NCBI GenBank assembly: GCA_005223125.1
Contig: NJBH01000016.1
Location: 24,022-88,021, forward strand
Direction of reading: 5' to 3'
Origin: Promethearchaeota archaeon Loki_b32
Lineage (GTDB): Archaea; Asgardarchaeota; Lokiarchaeia; Sigyniarchaeales; SOKP01
DNA: 64,000 nt
Below the pieces are notes generated by a model that searched no databases, was not told the DNA's origin, and worked only from the letters and a program-made list of their open reading frames with translations. Positions 54,961 to 63,472 of this stretch are shown piece by piece. A program made the position numbers and the translations under genes. How positions within the stretch are numbered: the first letter of the stretch is position 1; each line of letters begins with the position of its first letter.

Positions 54961-57333
54961 TTAAAATATGTTTATCCCAGTCTTGGCTTGAAATGTCTTA
55001 ATTATATAATCTTGAATTACTTGAGGATTATTCATTCTATGATCGATCCAAAATGGAAATTCAATTAAAATAATATCGTGTTTGCTACAAAAATATTTTC
55101 TAAATAAATCAATACAACGCCCATTAATAAAACGCATAAAAGTCGCAAAATCTTTGCGAACATTATTATATATTCTATGGAAAGGATTAGGAAAATAGTA
55201 ATGCTGTGGACCATTGTATTCAGAAGCAATTTTTAATCCATTTAAACTTAGATTTATACTATTGGCTACTCTCTTCAAAACTTTGCTTTTTAATGTAATT
55301 ACTTTATCAATAAACTCAAATTCAAGGTAACCATAAGGAAATTCAATTAAAACAGTATCCCCCTCATTGATAAAAATCCTATTAGATAAAAAATCATTAG
55401 TTATATTTTTTAATACTCGTTTACGATTATTAAAATCATTAATGAAATATGTTTTATGATGTTGTTGATAGAGTAATTTTTGTTCGTTTGCATTTAATAA
55501 TATCAACAATCCTTCATTTAAAATCAATTTTACTTTATTATTTCCTAATATTAATTCATTCTTTATAAATGATATTTTAGAATAACAATCGAAATGAATC
55601 CTCTTATCTGACACAGTCCCTAAAGTATGTAACTGTACCTTTGAAAAAGGACTATTAAAGACAGCTTCAATATTTTCACGATATAGAGATTCATACTTAC
55701 CCTCAGAGCAATATGGACACCAAGTACCTTGTACTATACTATTAGGAATAGCATCCCAAGGTCTATGTTTCTTGGTATTACAAATCCATGTTAATATTAC
55801 TTTAGATGGAGGCGAATGTTTTTCATTAATCATTTCATTGAACTCTTCTCTGGTTGTTACTAAAGATCCTGGTACATTATTTTCTTCTATACCTCTTCTT
55901 CTAGCAAGTTCTACAAAATCATCATAACTCTGACCCACTCGTTCTCCAAAACATTTTGGACACCAACTATGTTGGGAATTAATTGTATCAATTCTTGCAT
56001 CCCAATATGGATGACCTTCTATATTACAACTCCAAGTTAATAAAATTCTAGAAGGAGATTCATTTTTAATTAATTCATTGAATTCCTCTCTTGTTGTTAT
56101 TAATGATCCCGGCACATTGTTCTCTTCTATACCTCTTTTTCTTGCAAGTTCTGCAGCATCATCATAAGTATATTTGGAAGCTTTACTCCACATCAAATCA
56201 TAATAATTTATTATTTCACCAGTTTCAACATCTCTAATTTTTGCTGAATCCCTTGCGAATGTTCGAACCGAATCAACAGAAATATAATCTTTTGGAAATT
56301 CTTTTAATATTGTTTCTTGAATTTTCTGAACAGACATATATGATTCTCCTCTCTTAAATTTATCAACTTCAGTTCTTACTAACATGAATATTCTTTTTTT
56401 TAAGTATTCTGGGATTTTATGTCGTATGATCCCACGAGAATCTTCACCAAGTGAATCTCTACAATTAGAGCAAGGTATTATGTATTGCTGTAAGTTCGCA
56501 AGCGATTCTGAAAATGAATAATAGCATTTAAGACACATCCATTGTAAGATCGAATTTTGATTCTTGTATTCTTTTTCATAATTAGATAATAACTTCAAGT
56601 TCATTTCACGAGCCCTTTCTTTTATTGTTTTTTCACTGAGTGGTCTTTCTGTCTTCTTTGCAAATCGAGGATTTAAATAAGGTAAAATATATTTAATTAT
56701 GGGAAAATCAGAATCAATCCCAGTTTTTCTTGCAACTTCAGCCTTATTTTTTGATATATTATCGGAAATTAATATTGGAGCAAATTTAATTATTTTTTTA
56801 TAAAATTCTGCTGTTGGATTTTTAAGAATACCGAAATTTTTAAGGAGTTCTTTAATTTTCTCTTCTGGAATATTTAATGTCCATTTTTCATTTAAATACC
56901 TAGTCTTAATATAGTCAAGGAATTTCTTATGCCTTCCAATAATTATAATACTTTTTTTTGAATTCCGATTTCCTATACTTTCCATTTCATTATTCATAAA
57001 AACATCTACTTCTTTTGGGATTATATTTTCATTACTACTTATTAACTCCTTGTTTTCTATTTTAGTTGTTCTTCTTATCAGTTCCTTAGACTCTTTTTTA
57101 TTTTTTCTAATTAAATTACCTTCTAATCCAATATATTCACTCAAATTCAATTTTTCTGAATTAATTTTGAATTCAAACCTTTCTAATCCATCATATTTGC
57201 TTAAATCTAGCTTTTTTCGATTATTTTGGAATTCAAAGCTTTCTAATCCATCGTATTCACTCAAATCTGGTTTTTCTGAGGTCACAAAGACAAATTCTTC
57301 ATCATCTTCAGAGTGTCTATCAACATCGTTCAT
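54961..57333 (-). CDS. Multi-zinc-ribbon protein with C-terminal Vsr/DUF559-like PD-(D/E)XK endonuclease domain
   Basis: WMCLKC..CSNC, WSC..H..WCPKC, WIC..H..WCPYC; FDCY...EYNGPQHY...C.KHDIILIEFPFW. Confidence 0.75.
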   Translation of the reverse strand: MNDVDRHSEDDEEFVFVTSEKPDLSEYDGLESFEFQNNRKKLDLSKYDGLERFEFKINSEKLNLSEYIGLEGNLIRKNKKESKELIRRTTKIENKELISSNENIIPKEVDVFMNNEMESIGNRNSKKSIIIIGRHKKFLDYIKTRYLNEKWTLNIPEEKIKELLKNFGILKNPTAEFYKKIIKFAPILISDNISKNKAEVARKTGIDSDFPIIKYILPYLNPRFAKKTERPLSEKTIKERAREMNLKLLSNYEKEYKNQNSILQWMCLKCYYSFSESLANLQQYIIPCSNCRDSLGEDSRGIIRHKIPEYLKKRIFMLVRTEVDKFKRGESYMSVQKIQETILKEFPKDYISVDSVRTFARDSAKIRDVETGEIINYYDLMWSKASKYTYDDAAELARKRGIEENNVPGSLITTREEFNELIKNESPSRILLTWSCNIEGHPYWDARIDTINSQHSWCPKCFGERVGQSYDDFVELARRRGIEENNVPGSLVTTREEFNEMINEKHSPPSKVILTWICNTKKHRPWDAIPNSIVQGTWCPYCSEGKYESLYRENIEAVFNSPFSKVQLHTLGTVSDKRIHFDCYSKISFIKNELILGNNKVKLILNEGLLILLNANEQKLLYQQHHKTYFINDFNNRKRVLKNITNDFLSNRIFINEGDTVLIEFPYGYLEFEFIDKVITLKSKVLKRVANSINLSLNGLKIASEYNGPQHYYFPNPFHRIYNNVRKDFATFMRFINGRCIDLFRKYFCSKHDIILIEFPFWIDHRMNNPQVIQDYIIKTFQAKTGINIF
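55710..56170 (-). repeat. Intragenic duplication, two ~240-bp (80-aa) units
   Basis: YDD..ELAR.RGIEENNVPGSL.TTREEFNE..P...LTW.CN..H..WDA....WCP.C occurs twice; visible at DNA level with a 240-bp offset. Boundaries are approximate. Confidence 0.9.
57121..57280 (-). repeat. 60-bp tandem repeat, about 2.7 copies (20-aa unit)
   Basis: TTCTAATCCA starts at 57121, 57181 and 57241; peptide unit K.[DN]LS[EK]Y.GLE.FEF. Confidence 0.92.
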
Positions 57334-58514: not shown

Positions 58515-58530
58515 GATAAAAACTTAAATA
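58515..58530 (+). promoter_or_regulatory. Putative BRE/TATA promoter for the structured RNA and nuclease gene
   Basis: GATAAAAAC-TTAAATA would place the start near 58550. AT-rich context makes chance matches common. Confidence 0.35.
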
Positions 58531-58552
58531 TCTAACTTTTCTTTTATTTTAT

Positions 58553-58570
58553 AACAAACGGATGTTTGTT
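58553..58570. promoter_or_regulatory. Palindrome (operator or 5' hairpin)
   Basis: AACAAAC-GGAT-GTTTGTT, a perfect 7-bp inverted repeat. Confidence 0.5.
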
Positions 58571-58580
58571 TAAAAAGAAC

Positions 58581-58858
58581 AAGACTGATTTTGGAGGATC
58601 CATTAACCGAGGGGGGAGATCCGCTGGTCTATATGTCTTTTCCGTCTATATTCTTTTGGCCGAGAATATAGCTGGAGACGCCATATAGAGGGGCGGATGA
58701 CCCCTTTCAGATAGTGGATCCTCCAATTAAGATGTTATATTCCTCTAGCGGGCACCGTTGAAGCACGCATGTTTCAATAATATGGCTAAATCAATGCGCC
58801 CTGCTTGCTTTGACAGTATCCGCTGGAGGAGTACCACCTCTTAATTATCTCCGGTCTT
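58581..58858 (+). ncRNA. Unknown structured RNA or 5' leader with two long rod hairpins
   Basis: 46% GC by hand count (129/280 over 58581-58860) against very AT-rich flanks. Hairpin 1 is 58591-58726, hairpin 2 is 58727-58844, closing stem 58581-58587/58852-58858. G-U bias indicates the + strand. Confidence 0.75.
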
Positions 58859-58878
58859 ATTATCAAAAATTACAAAAT

Positions 58879-58884
58879 GGAGGT
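58879..58884 (+). promoter_or_regulatory. Shine-Dalgarno site GGAGGT
   Basis: 8 nt upstream of the GTG at 58893. Confidence 0.75.
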
Positions 58885-58892
58885 AGATAAGA

Positions 58893-59375
58893 GTGGTAGA
58901 TATTGATAATATCAAGCTAAAAGACAAAAGGTTAAGAGATTATATTTTATCAGTTGATAGGAATATAGCATGGCACTTAAATGGTGATTTTACTTTAGTT
59001 CAATCAATCATTAAACAGCAAACGATACTTTTAGAAAACTCAAGCAAAAACTCGAATAGGATGGATGAAGTTTTAATCAAATATTGCTATATATTCGATT
59101 ATGAATGGGATGTTGTTTCAGGAATGAGTCAATATGGTGTTGGAGATCTTGTTTTCACTGACGGCAATGAGAATTACTTAGTAATAGAAGTCAAACAACT
59201 TTCTTACGGCTCAGGGAGAAATCAATGCGTAGCACGTAGAAAAGCAAGAAGAAGAGTCGAAGAGCAGGCAATTAAATATATGAATGCATTTCGTAAGAAA
59301 CACCCAGAAGCTAAATCTATAATCGGCGTGGCAGTTGCCAGTTCTGAATGGACTTTTTATGCTTTTAAGGGTTAA
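58893..59375 (+). CDS. Small stand-alone PD-(D/E)XK nuclease (RecB/NucS-like motifs)
   Basis: E..GVGDLVFTD..YLVIEVK..EQAIKY gives the D, ExK and QxxxY motifs; strong SD. Confidence 0.78.
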   Translation: MVDIDNIKLKDKRLRDYILSVDRNIAWHLNGDFTLVQSIIKQQTILLENSSKNSNRMDEVLIKYCYIFDYEWDVVSGMSQYGVGDLVFTDGNENYLVIEVKQLSYGSGRNQCVARRKARRRVEEQAIKYMNAFRKKHPEAKSIIGVAVASSEWTFYAFKG

Positions 59376-59410: not shown

Positions 59411-59439
59411 ATGTCTATACTAATAGACATCCTTTTTTT
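59411..59439 (+). terminator. Hairpin plus poly-T terminator
   Basis: ATGTCTAT-ACTA-ATAGACAT followed by CC and T7, between convergent genes. Confidence 0.6.
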
Positions 59440-59463
59440 ATTCATTAAAAACCACTAAAAATT

Positions 59464-60507
59464 TTAAGTAAAGATATATAACCTTTTTTCTTTATGATAA
59501 TGCACTCCTAAAAAATCGTTTAAATCAGTCAAACTTCTAGGTATCTTAATTAAACCTGGATTTTTAAAAATTTTAACTTTTGAAATAATATAATTCTTAT
59601 TGGAAATATCTATTCCTAGATTCTCTAAAATATTCATGTCTGTATTAAATTTTTCAGTCTTCTTCAAATTAATCTTTGTTACATCTTCATCTTTCAAACT
59701 ATTAAGCTTATTTAATTCATTCATGAAATTTATGTTATTTTTTAGCGAATTAATAATCTTAGATTCTATTAAAATTTTTGAAAGATTTTTAATTCTACTT
59801 ATGTATTTCATCATCAAATACTCAATAAATTGATTCTTTATTGAGTATACATAATTCTGATATATAATTCTTTTCAGTTTCCAAAAATTTAAAATCTCTT
59901 TATAAAAAGTATTGTTTATATGCCATATCTTTGTATTTTCAGAGTAATGCATATTCATAATTAGTTTTTCTAAATCTATTTTTTTTATCTTTAATAATTT
60001 TGCAGTCTTTGTTATTCCTTGAAGTGTATCTAAATCAATATGCGAGTTTAATAGAATTTTATACTGATTTGGAATTTCTTTAATTAGTGGAAGGTGGATA
60101 TTATGTATTTTAAAGACGGAATAAAAATTTTCATTTATAATAATATCACCATACTCTTCATGATTAAAATTTTCACTTTTTCTCAATATTCTTTCTCCAA
60201 TGTGTGAAAAGAAAATATGGCCAATATCATGCAATAAACCTTGTAAAATTACTTTTATTCCAATTTCTTCTTCAATGTGATTTTCAATCATAAGTCTTGA
60301 CAAATAATAAGCTGTTTTAATTGAGTGTTGATATCTTGTAAATTCTACTGAATTATCAAAAGCGAACCTAAAAGTTGCAAGATAAGAAATATCCTTTAGT
60401 CTCTTAAACCAAGGATTTGGGATAATTTCACTTACTAAAAGAGCAGTCTTAACATAACCATTAGATTCAAGGTATGAAGTTAATTTACTCAAATTTGCAT
60501 TAATCAC
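59464..60507 (-). CDS. HD-domain phosphohydrolase (SAMHD1/dNTPase-like, divergent)
   Basis: FKRLKDISYL, TRYQHS, LLHDIGHIFFSHIGE, HE, IDLD. Confidence 0.82.
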   Translation of the reverse strand: MINANLSKLTSYLESNGYVKTALLVSEIIPNPWFKRLKDISYLATFRFAFDNSVEFTRYQHSIKTAYYLSRLMIENHIEEEIGIKVILQGLLHDIGHIFFSHIGERILRKSENFNHEEYGDIIINENFYSVFKIHNIHLPLIKEIPNQYKILLNSHIDLDTLQGITKTAKLLKIKKIDLEKLIMNMHYSENTKIWHINNTFYKEILNFWKLKRIIYQNYVYSIKNQFIEYLMMKYISRIKNLSKILIESKIINSLKNNINFMNELNKLNSLKDEDVTKINLKKTEKFNTDMNILENLGIDISNKNYIISKVKIFKNPGLIKIPRSLTDLNDFLGVHYHKEKRLYIFT

Positions 60508-60589: not shown

Positions 60590-63472
60590 ATGAATTCCAA
60601 GGATAACCCGCTAAATTCAATTAAAAAGCATAGGGAGATTTATTTATATAAAGAGGAAGTTGAATTTCTTGAAGAGTTGGAGGATAAATTAGGAAAACAA
60701 ATAAAGTGTTTAAATACTGATAGTCCAGAAATATTGAAGAAACTTGAACAAATCTATAATGATGATACTAAGTATGAGTATTTAGCTGACCATGTTCCAG
60801 AAGTACCTGAAATGGTTTTAGATCCAATTAAAGCAGCTTTGAAAAATGCTGAGATGAAAAAACAGATGGATAATTGTTTCTTAGCAAAAGATAATCATAT
60901 AATATCTTTTAATGTCTCAAATCATAGGGAATATGAAAAAAAAGAATTGATTAATCTCCCAGATTCAATAAAAAATCTTACAGAGCTTGTCGAATTACGT
61001 CTATATGGTTTTAATTCTTTACCAAACAGCATTAAAGAATTAAGAAGATTGAGAATCTTATCCATAGTTTCTTATTTACAAGAAGAAATTTCAGATATTA
61101 TTTGTGAAATTCCAAATTTAGAAGAGTTAGAAGTTCTAGCAAAGTTTAGAAATTTGCCTGAGAGAATAGGAGATTTAAGGAAACTGAAATCTCTCCAATT
61201 ACATTATAATAGATTGAAAAAATTACCAGAGTCTATTGGGAATCTAAAAAATCTAGAAGTGTTAGAATTACGAGGAAACCTACTTCTGACTCTTCCGGAA
61301 ACTATAGGAAATCTTGAACAACTTAAAAAGATAGATATTTCAGAAAATCCCATTAAAACCCTACCAGAATCTTTTGGAAACCTTAAAAAAGTCAAGGAAT
61401 TGATACTATCTTCAAAGAAATTAAAAACTTTACCTGAATCTTTTTGTAGATTGGAAAATTTAGAAAAATTAGAAATAGATTATCATCTAGGTAGATTACC
61501 AGAAAGTTTTGGAGAATTAAATAGCCTTAAATATTTAAAACTCCATTGCGGAGGATTGGAATATTTATCAAACTCGTTTGGTAATTTGAAATCATTAATT
61601 GACCTTGATATTAGATGCCATGAACTAAAAGATCTTCCTATATCATTTGGGAATTTGAAAAAGTTAGAAAAATTAAATCTTGTATGTGCTGAATTAAGAT
61701 CTTTACCAGAGTCATTTAGTCAATTAAAGGAATTGAGAGAATTTAATCTTTCAACTGTTGATTTTCCATTGCTACCAGTTTCCTTTGGGGATCTAAAACA
61801 ATTAAAAATACTAAATTTGAATAGAATAGATTTAGAAAAATTACCAGATTCTTTTGGGAATCTAAAAAATTTAGAAATCTTAAAAATAAGCGGAAATAAT
61901 CTATATGATCTTCCCAATTCTTTTAAAGATTTACAGAAATTAAAAACACTTGAAATTGACCGAAATCCATTTGAAATACTGCCTTCACCAATAGGATTTT
62001 TAAAGAACATAGTGAATCTTAAAATTTGGTCTCAACATCTAAGTGTTTTGCCTGATAGTATAGGTAACATGGAAAACTTAGAGACACTTGAAATAGATGG
62101 AAAACTAAAAACGCTTCCAGAATCTTTTGGAAACTTACGAAAATTAAAATTATTAAAATTAAATAGGAATTATTTGAGAAGTCTGCCAGAATCCTTTGGA
62201 TGCTTAGATTCATTAGATGAATTGGATCTATCCTTTAATAAAATTACGAAATTGCCCATAAGCTTTAGTGAGCTCAAGAATCTTCAGGTCGTAAATTTGG
62301 AAAATAATGAGTTATTAGAACTCCCTCTAAATATAGGAAAACTCAAATCTCTCAAAATATTAAAATTGAGGCAGAATCAGCTAAATTTTCTTCCAGATAC
62401 TCTGAAAGAATTGGTAAATCTCGAGATTTTAGAATTAAATAGCAATAAGATTGAAAAATTACCTGAAGATTTATCAGGGCTAAATAATTTAAAGAAGATC
62501 GGATTATCTAACAATAATATCAAGTCAATCCCAGAATCAATTGGAATACTTAACAAATTAATTGACTTAAATCTTGATAACAACTATATAGTATATATAC
62601 CCGATTCTTTGAAGAATTTAGAAAACTTGGAGTGGTTAAACTTACAAAAAAATGATTTAAAAGAATTTCCCGATATTGTAGTACAATTGAGAAAATTAAA
62701 GAGAATTGAATTGAATGAAAATCCTTCTCTTGCTATGAATAAAGCAATATTTAACCTATATGATATTGATGACTTAAACTTTTCATTTTGGTCTGAGAAG
62801 CAGACATCCAAAAAGATCTCACCTGATTTTTTTGAAATTAACAATCCAAAAATGAAAAGGGAGATCAAAGAGATATTCCTCAATTCATTAAATATTATAA
62901 ATAATATTGATGACTTTCTTATTGGTTACATTAATGGTAAATTATATCTACGCGAATATATTCTTCGATTTGGACAAAGAGCGCAAAATGATATTAATAC
63001 ACTCACGGAAAGAGTTTATGATAAAGATCAAATACATTTATTAAAACAATTGAAAGAGGATTTAAACGAGCAAGAAGCAAAGAATAACCTTAAGATCCAA
63101 TTCATAAAATTATGTGACTATATAGGAACTTTAACTTATCCAATGGGGATTCTTTATCTCAGTGCGATGCTAAAAAAAAATCTATTTAAAAATATTGAAT
63201 ATTATGAGCTTTTTTGGTTTAATAAAATTAAAAAGGAACAACAAGAATTTAGAGAAAATGGAGTTTCAGCTTTCGAAACTTCTTTCAGAGTTTTTATTTC
63301 TGATGAGGAACTTAATAAGTATGCCGAGACTGTAGCTCAGCTTGAAAAAGAAAACCAAGCTGCCAAGCAAAGTACTGCTAATGATGGAGCACTGCATAAC
63401 CCTGTTCGTCAGTTAGAGGATATGGAGATAAGCAGGGTTAGGAATAAGTATCACTTCGTTCACATGAATTAA
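60590..63472 (+). CDS. Large leucine-rich-repeat protein; extreme C-terminus possibly chimeric
   Basis: About 25 tandem ~23-aa repeats of type LPESFGNLKxLxxLxLxxN; composition changes near 63360. Confidence 0.88.
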   Translation: MNSKDNPLNSIKKHREIYLYKEEVEFLEELEDKLGKQIKCLNTDSPEILKKLEQIYNDDTKYEYLADHVPEVPEMVLDPIKAALKNAEMKKQMDNCFLAKDNHIISFNVSNHREYEKKELINLPDSIKNLTELVELRLYGFNSLPNSIKELRRLRILSIVSYLQEEISDIICEIPNLEELEVLAKFRNLPERIGDLRKLKSLQLHYNRLKKLPESIGNLKNLEVLELRGNLLLTLPETIGNLEQLKKIDISENPIKTLPESFGNLKKVKELILSSKKLKTLPESFCRLENLEKLEIDYHLGRLPESFGELNSLKYLKLHCGGLEYLSNSFGNLKSLIDLDIRCHELKDLPISFGNLKKLEKLNLVCAELRSLPESFSQLKELREFNLSTVDFPLLPVSFGDLKQLKILNLNRIDLEKLPDSFGNLKNLEILKISGNNLYDLPNSFKDLQKLKTLEIDRNPFEILPSPIGFLKNIVNLKIWSQHLSVLPDSIGNMENLETLEIDGKLKTLPESFGNLRKLKLLKLNRNYLRSLPESFGCLDSLDELDLSFNKITKLPISFSELKNLQVVNLENNELLELPLNIGKLKSLKILKLRQNQLNFLPDTLKELVNLEILELNSNKIEKLPEDLSGLNNLKKIGLSNNNIKSIPESIGILNKLIDLNLDNNYIVYIPDSLKNLENLEWLNLQKNDLKEFPDIVVQLRKLKRIELNENPSLAMNKAIFNLYDIDDLNFSFWSEKQTSKKISPDFFEINNPKMKREIKEIFLNSLNIINNIDDFLIGYINGKLYLREYILRFGQRAQNDINTLTERVYDKDQIHLLKQLKEDLNEQEAKNNLKIQFIKLCDYIGTLTYPMGILYLSAMLKKNLFKNIEYYELFWFNKIKKEQQEFRENGVSAFETSFRVFISDEELNKYAETVAQLEKENQAAKQSTANDGALHNPVRQLEDMEISRVRNKYHFVHMN

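Follow-up and report, generated by a model that had tools for sequence, protein, structure and literature searches.

A candidate fail-safe translational switch in the leader of a portable nuclease-fold gene from an Asgard archaeon

Results

A self-contained unit and its surroundings

We have analysed a window of 64,000 nucleotides from the genome (G000; 4.1 Mb, 29.9% G+C) of Promethearchaeota archaeon Loki_b32. The TATA boxes, the composition of the genome, and the genes nearby also suggest an Asgard archaeon of the Lokiarchaeia type. On the plus strand of the window lies a self-contained unit of ~930 bp, in which an archaeal TATA box (58523–58531, the predicted promoter, with a predicted transcript start at ~58551–58553) is followed by a leader of ~340 nt, a gene for a 160-aa protein of the PD-(D/E)xK fold (58893–59375), and a terminator-like 8-bp hairpin with a T7 tract (59411–59439). 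Homology among the loci begins at ~58513, just before the TATA box, and stops at 59438–59446, where the terminator-like element closes the shared unit. The TATA motif is found 27 nt 5' of the first leader hairpin in all of the eight aligned leaders where it is readable, and the terminator hairpin with its T tract recurs in L026, L028, and L030, with a variant in L019 and T tracts at the other loci.

The stretch 58550–58900 has a G+C content of 42%, compared with 17% for the surrounding spacer. The folding z of the leader is −10.4, and its plus strand folds better than the minus strand, as is the case in 12 of 12 leaders. Rfam gives nothing at gathering level in the window, where the best hit (E 0.076; 18.8 of 97 bits) lies on the wrong strand, and our literature and Rfam searches for the leader RNA have found no paper or family that describes it. 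Leader peptides were rejected, since the frames reach 23–40 codons only, and so was a minus-strand ORF, a 30-codon frame that is absent from L008, L010, and L024.

The unit is present in one of the 135 family genomes, and its neighbours differ at nearly every locus. Neither terminal repeats nor a transposase are seen at its boundaries, and G000 and the other 134 family genomes hold no further copy of the leader, nor a leader before any other gene. In the window, an HD-domain protein (59464–60507, minus strand; Pfam HD, E 3e-8) converges on the nuclease terminator and is not a constant neighbour. Also nearby are a 790-aa protein with DUF4379-like zinc-ribbon modules, directly 3' of mutL (54961–57333, minus strand), and a 960-aa leucine-rich-repeat protein (60590–63472, plus strand); leucine-rich-repeat and UvrD-helicase genes flank the nuclease in L008 and L019 as well. 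L021 (2753–6470) and L024 (1450–5110, minus strand) have a common downstream block, which consists of a 194-aa gene, a radical SAM gene, a DUF2997-like gene, and a gene of 750–770 aa. In L021, an AAA ATPase lies upstream of this block, and the region resembles an accessory island without a PHROGs match. A PHROGs search has returned no match for the nuclease or five neighbours.

The encoded protein

The putative nuclease carries an Arg-rich helix, and its residues D85, E99, K101, and Q125 are conserved across 144 homologues. The structure model (pLDDT 84) displays the alpha/beta core with D and (D/E)xK by which the PD-(D/E)xK superfamily is recognised, and its best structural matches are all enzymes of this superfamily (NucS, ACE1, Hjc), at weak scores (Z 5–7). 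The fold and the D...ExK core are thus held in common with NucS/EndoMS, Hjc, the Cas4-like ACE1, and UPF0102, but the protein stays below every curated cut-off and has N-terminal helices and an Arg-rich insert of its own. It reaches 14.5 of 21.1 bits for Hjc in Pfam and 17.1 of 70 in NCBIfam, and 13.6 of 216 for NucS; the curated cut-off of HsdR_N is likewise not reached. PADLOC 2023 gives a weak generic PD_DExK match (E 0.0045), and no constant partner gene is found at the loci. The dN/dS values of 0.12–0.35 indicate that the protein is made and is under purifying selection.

The family is unnamed, with cyanobacterial, archaeal, and some protist members. Two distant homologues from related genomes (L003:1048–1884, minus strand; L005:1456–2316, plus strand) are fused to a C-terminal dsRNA-binding domain, with domain scores of 23.4 bits (cut-off 23) and 19.1 bits, and both are without the Arg-rich insert and without the leader. 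These fusions hint at double-stranded RNA as a substrate or ligand. P0016 (671 aa), a eukaryotic protein from a protist transcriptome record, contains three tandem copies of the nuclease domain, and P0017 contains two.

Anatomy of the leader

The leader starts with H0, a small 5'-terminal hairpin of 7 bp (58553–58570), which shows two compensatory A-U/G-C pairs (alignment A3). It continues with two long irregular hairpins, HP1 (arm 1, 58591–58726; inverted repeat I1) with its apical loop at 58656–58661, and HP2 (arm 2, 58725–58846; inverted repeat I2) with its apex at 58784–58789; both show compensatory pairs, many of them in HP1. In the fold that leaves the Shine-Dalgarno (SD) sequence free, a three-way junction is closed by the helix P0, whose 5' strand (58581–58587) pairs with 58852–58858; the first base of the latter is common with the anti-SD strand described below. 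P0 appears in the pre-SD fold of all 10 aligned leaders, with 91% of cells paired, and these 10 leaders show one-sided changes only (U-A/U-G), without true covariation of P0.

Over the 10 alignable leaders, both-sided changes occur in 49 of the 108 consensus pairs; as the leaders are related and not independent, this figure and those for the loops below are counts, not probabilities. The distance from junction to apex is kept at 63–68 nt for HP1 and 59–61 nt for HP2 in 13 leaders (60 by geometry for HP2 in the window), even in L013 and L040 with their unalignable arms. HP1 is variable in sequence and constant in length. HP1 of L008 is just 45% identical to that of the window, while its other parts are 82–100% identical, and both loop and length are kept.

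The two apical loops are complementary to each other. In the window, 58656–58661 (strand 1) can form six of six pairs with 58784–58789 (strand 2) at −8.7 kcal/mol, a result reached by 0.25% of shuffles. The complementarity is found in 10 of 13 leaders, in distinct versions (shuffle fraction ≤0.014), and three of the six loop-loop pairs show both-sided change (alignment A3). In L013, the roles of the two kissing loops are swapped; L039 has a weak kiss, and L010 and L040 a broken one. The loop duplexes have energies of −7 to −14 kcal/mol, which is similar in size to the gap between the two folds described below. HP1 and HP2 abut without a linker in the SD-free (ON) fold, an arrangement that may favour end-to-end stacking. 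For this reason, the kiss could instead belong to the SD-buried (OFF) fold and lock it, or join two molecules, and the side on which it acts, ON or OFF, is something that we infer.

A strong helix over the start codon

The gene opens with the SD sequence GGAGGT, a spacer, and a GTG start (58879–58895). SD-led initiation is used in G000, whose 16S rRNA bears the anti-SD at its 3' end and whose SD-like words peak at −16 to −10 from the start codons; the GGAGGT lies at −14, within this peak. The initial annotation had proposed that the SD and the start codon can be sequestered by a helix between 58832–58852 and 58879–58898. Our recount agrees with it in full: the duplex has 17 Watson-Crick and two G-U pairs, one A.A mismatch, and one bulged C, covers both GGAGGT (58879–58884) and GTG (58893–58895), and has an energy of −22.2 kcal/mol. 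In a genome-wide test, where it scores −24.1, none of the 2,609 other (crudely called) gene starts of G000 is stronger (median −6.7; next best −20.0), and one of 2,000 shuffles reaches its strength. The predicted TATA box places the transcript start ~300 nt upstream of the anti-SD.

It was also claimed correctly that this helix and the full hairpin 2 are mutually exclusive, as the anti-SD strand overlaps the 3' base of HP2, which spans 58832–58846, two letters more than first given (I2). On the other hand, an exchange of arms between the hairpins had been suggested from two doubled words, ATCCGCTGG at 58619 and 58818, and TGGAGGA at 58592 and 58824. The letters are indeed present, but they are doubled in this window only, and in none of nine aligned homologues. 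We therefore regard the repeats as chance and reject the arm swapping.

Three competing strands

Sequence comparison reveals that three strands compete. The anti-SD strand (58832–58852) has a conserved core at 58839–58852, with a toehold at 58847–58851 that is free in the ON fold; it can pair with the SD/start region (58879–58895) or with a decoy, i.e., an anti-anti-SD strand (58725–58732), which lengthens HP2 and keeps hold of the anti-SD while the leader is in the ON fold. The decoy copies the spacer between SD and start, so the anti-SD can pair either upstream or downstream, and all eight decoy positions pair with 58839–58846 in 10 of 10 aligned leaders. The core forms 14 bp with the SD region in nine of the 10 aligned leaders (13 of 14 in the window), and it is also present in L013, L019, L039, and L040.

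The switch strands are nearly invariant among the 10 alignable leaders, as expected when the ribosome fixes one strand and all three must pair. Covariation of the switch comes from two divergent loci, aligned by eye. In L040, whose protein is 44% identical, all three strands have changed together with both helices kept (13 bp in ON, 13–14 bp in OFF). In L013, decoy and spacer have changed together, giving 11 bp with one mismatch in ON and 16 bp in OFF.

The homologue set consists of 13 close homologues (44–87% identity) and two loci from a DNA pattern scan, and upstream DNA was read for 13 distinct loci. The anti-SD pairing, whose conservation had been named as a check, is kept in all 13 other close homologues examined, and the leader in 12 of 13 (partly assembled in L039). 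By comparison, 12 distant homologues have no such leader upstream (z −1.6 to +1.0). The exception among the close ones is L019, where the gene is conserved and a bare anti-SD hairpin alone starts 4 nt after the upstream stop codon; this hairpin could be opened by translational coupling. At this locus (P0009; L019:3935–4000), a natural variant without the leader domain, the nuclease follows a radical SAM gene.

Order of folding

In our folding computations, a kind of check that had also been proposed initially, an SD-free fold comes first and an SD-buried fold follows in the full-length RNA. Before the SD is transcribed, the anti-SD is paired upstream in 12 of 12 leaders, with the P0-closed three-way junction in the 10 aligned ones. 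In a length scan of the window, the decoy helix has a probability of 1.0 and P0 of 0.99 up to 58878; P0 yields as the SD appears (58884–58886), the SD helix attains 0.9 at 58886, and the decoy helix is lost at 58895, when the start codon is out. The full-length RNA favours the SD-buried fold by 4.6–12.8 kcal/mol in one computation and by 4.2–15.0 kcal/mol in another, in energies that include neither pseudoknot nor ribosome. The probability that the SD is paired is then 0.80–1.0 in 11 of 12 leaders, and 0.45 for L030 in one run; the lowest-energy fold of L040 buries the SD core alone.

The SD stays buried after each simulated 5' truncation and each blocking of an arm, and in most cases it becomes costlier to free. 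When the decoy is lost by truncation, the cost of freeing the SD rises from 9 to 13–17 kcal/mol in the window and up to 20 kcal/mol in homologues, and with the decoy or P0 lost it is 11–20 kcal/mol in most leaders. This indicates that the upstream domain favours ON, and that the bare hairpin is a fail-safe OFF state. Overall, the computed behaviour is ON first, OFF at equilibrium, and OFF after damage.

Several other ways of activation were rejected. Neither 5' processing nor the opening of either arm gains access to the SD in the folding models. The decoy GGAG that 10 of 12 leaders carry within the 3' arm of HP1 does not improve SD access, and for an RNA thermometer the cost of freeing the SD is still 5.9 kcal/mol at 60 °C. 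Of the two routes by which translation of the nuclease was initially thought to be gated, RNA refolding is supported by the conserved, exclusive anti-SD switch, and processing is not supported by the simulated 5' truncations, which leave the SD buried. From sequence comparison and folding together, we infer that the anti-SD switch controls how the nuclease is translated.

Lone copies of arm 1

A segment of HP1, comprising the 5' arm, the loop, and 12 nt of the 3' arm (58598–58675), recurs alone in seven related genomes of two other genera, with one copy each (L057:1486–1563 and L058–L063, in G126, G119, G106, G139, G039, G141, and G138). The matches extend over 47–78 nt at 77–90% identity, with E values from 1e-8 to 1e-23, and those in G141 and G138 have four letters in common with the leader type of L029. 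Six copies lie beside a GH130 gene, where a GH130-glycosyltransferase island that follows thymidylate synthase has its edge; the seventh precedes a phd/relE-like pair. The six are in fact one locus in near-identical islands (GH130 98% identical). Each of the two loci sits at the 5' edge of an accessory insertion and weakly resembles the 5' part of the leader.

No nuclease, HP2, or switch is found in the seven genomes. G000 (95.5% complete), the one genome in which co-occurrence of leader and antisense copy was tested, holds no second copy of arm 1, and its orthologous GH130 locus is also without one. On the antisense strand, a TATA-like element precedes the match by 34 nt in six genomes and by 27 nt in G039. 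The predicted duplex of a lone copy with the window leader has −76 to −128 kcal/mol, against −28 to −47 kcal/mol with unrelated leader types. Faster evolution of the lone copies was considered and rejected: they show 13% divergence, compared with 3% for the third positions of GH130, but the flanking non-coding DNA has diverged just as much. The lone copies may be antisense RNAs (an orphan antitoxin, an anti-defence RNA, or a sensed RNA) or relics of deleted units, and we place the relic reading slightly ahead.

Pattern matches in a Dehalococcoidia genome and two metagenome contigs were attributed to chance, with two of them falling within a coding frame. The viral contigs scanned contain neither the switch nor the arm-1 pattern, and a phage match to another arm type is a chance match of 21–23 nt.

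Discussion

Proposed mechanism and alternatives

The reading that we prefer is a fail-safe switch acting on the translation of a nuclease that is toxic or serves in defence. We consider it rather probable that the helix over the start codon forms the output half of such a switch, conserved and acting in cis, and that this switch sits in the 5' leader of a mobile unit with a single nuclease gene. During transcription, P0 and the two ~60-bp arms would form the three-way junction, in which decoy and P0 hold the anti-SD, and the SD would emerge free (ON). As soon as the SD and the start codon have been transcribed, the toehold of the anti-SD would displace P0 and then the decoy, to yield the more stable SD-buried helix (OFF). 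If any upstream part were lost or opened, the bare anti-SD hairpin would remain, and damage would default to OFF. The nuclease would be potentially harmful, a defence or addiction effector, and would probably act on double-stranded RNA or DNA. The leader might confine it to a co-transcriptional burst, or to an intact tertiary fold that is stabilised or released; candidates for the stabiliser are the kissing loops or a protein on the long arms, possibly the nuclease itself. As for the trigger, a macromolecule or the kinetics of folding would be likelier than a metabolite.

A different arrangement, to which we assign a low but appreciable probability, resembles type I toxin-antitoxin systems: a trans-acting antisense RNA of ~80 nt would bind the loop and 5' arm of HP1, break the kiss, and fix the OFF state. 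The seven genomes hold exactly the HP1 segment and no other part of the unit, at two different loci with TATA-like elements 27–34 nt ahead on the antisense strand; the predicted duplex is strong with the matching leader type; HP1 of L008 has been replaced wholesale with loop and length kept; and antitoxins of the TimR type do break an activating pseudoknot (PMC11295053). Yet G000 lacks a copy, the seven carriers lack a nuclease match, six of the seven copies count as one locus, both loci look like deletion relics, and a search with three other HP1 types has found no partner. A simple toehold trigger is not supported either, because blocking the 5' arm of HP1 does not free the SD. In a variant of this idea, the ~80-nt RNA is what the leader senses. 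HP1 would then be the specificity element, and the antisense arrangement can be added to our best explanation. More speculatively, and at rather small odds in our judgement, the whole may be an RNA-sensing module, in which a dsRNA-directed nuclease that stands alone is governed by its own mRNA leader, a programmable sensor in which one arm of ~60 bp can be exchanged. If true, it would be of a new kind in archaea: the arm would pair with a specific RNA encoded elsewhere, seen here as the lone copies of arm 1 that other Lokiarchaeia-like genomes carry, and the kissing-loop junction would convert this pairing into translation ON or OFF.

It is improbable, in our view, that the long arms are mainly a separate functional RNA (a nuclease substrate, a decoy, or an RNA antitoxin to which the nuclease protein binds, in the manner of type III systems) beside an anti-SD hairpin that merely dampens translation in a static way until ribosome standby or coupling relieves it. 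Arms of fixed length and free sequence, the Arg-rich helix, the dsRNA-binding-domain fusions of relatives, and the hairpin-only L019 would all suit it, but it leaves the invariant decoy and its concerted replacement in L040 and L013 unexplained, and between RNA and gene there is neither a terminator nor a repeat array. A metabolite or ion riboswitch, in which a small ligand holds the ON fold of the kissing-loop three-way junction with P0 as switch helix, is unlikely, with little probability left to it. The topology and the energy gap of 4–15 kcal/mol befit a translational ON switch, and the letters next to the junction hardly vary across the 10 aligned leaders; however, the need of three strands to pair accounts for this near-invariance, L029 has a different 5' junction strand, no P0 can be recognised in L040, Rfam gives no match, 60-bp arms of free sequence are unlike aptamers, and the same non-metabolic gene always follows, never another. 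The initial label of riboswitch-like is apt for the output half only, as there is no Rfam aptamer and the arms vary down to 41–45% identity. Finally, it is extremely improbable that the element works at the DNA level, as inverted repeats or the ends of a mobile element with a chance complement to the SD. The unit is mobile in its distribution and the protein weakly resembles junction resolvases, but the folding is strand-asymmetric with G-U pairs, the loops covary, the copy in G000 is single, and the boundaries run from promoter to terminator without terminal repeats or a transposase.

Relation to known systems

In purine-class translational riboswitches, a switch helix closes a three-way junction with two kissing hairpins, and the output is an anti-SD/anti-anti-SD pair. 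The leader is alike in all these respects, and a mutually exclusive expression platform is found in it both by computation and by comparison, but its arms are ~10 times longer and free in sequence, and it has no Rfam aptamer and no metabolic gene. In type III toxin-antitoxin systems (ToxIN, AbiF-like), a structured RNA and the nuclease gene that follows it share a transcription unit, as is seen here, whereas the nuclease fold is unrelated, an explicit SD switch is present, and no repeat array or T-tract terminator occurs between leader and gene. Where it could be checked, membership of the riboswitch and type III classes was not borne out; in its mode of action, the leader would resemble that of a type I toxin, combined with an output platform in the style of riboswitches.

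Type I toxin mRNAs (timP/TimR, tisB/IstR, zorO, hok; PMC11295053) likewise have a long structured leader, an SD masked by default (in our folding models, it is sequestered in the full-length mRNA), a loop-type tertiary pairing, a possible antisense partner, and a single small accessory gene. Theirs encodes a small membrane peptide, whereas the product here is archaeal and a 160-aa nuclease fold; their first fold masks the SD, whereas here it is SD-free; no antitoxin is found in the same genome, and the leader has two arms of ~60 bp whose lengths are fixed. Simulated 5' truncation does not free the SD, the reverse of the processing-activated toxin mRNAs and closer to timP, in which a pseudoknot in the unprocessed leader activates (PMC11295053). 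In T4-type homing endonucleases (I-TevI/II/III, segB, mobE), a stable hairpin buries the SD of the nuclease, with relief by a late promoter that omits its 5' strand (PMC2988022). They are a simpler precedent for a buried SD in a mobile nuclease gene, but those enzymes are GIY-YIG or HNH, not of the PD-(D/E)xK fold, and in our case a 300-nt upstream domain supplies the competing decoy and no inner promoter is conserved.

To our knowledge, the cis-acting RNA switches established in archaea are very few, and no RNA-antitoxin system has been established there. The present unit is compact and portable, both of its alternative folds have comparative support, and it bears on the ways in which Asgard archaea keep dangerous enzymes under control and deal with double-stranded RNA. 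Natural control variants are already at hand in the bare hairpin of L019, the exchanged arm of L008, the swapped loops of L013, the broken kiss of L010, and the recoded switch of L040.
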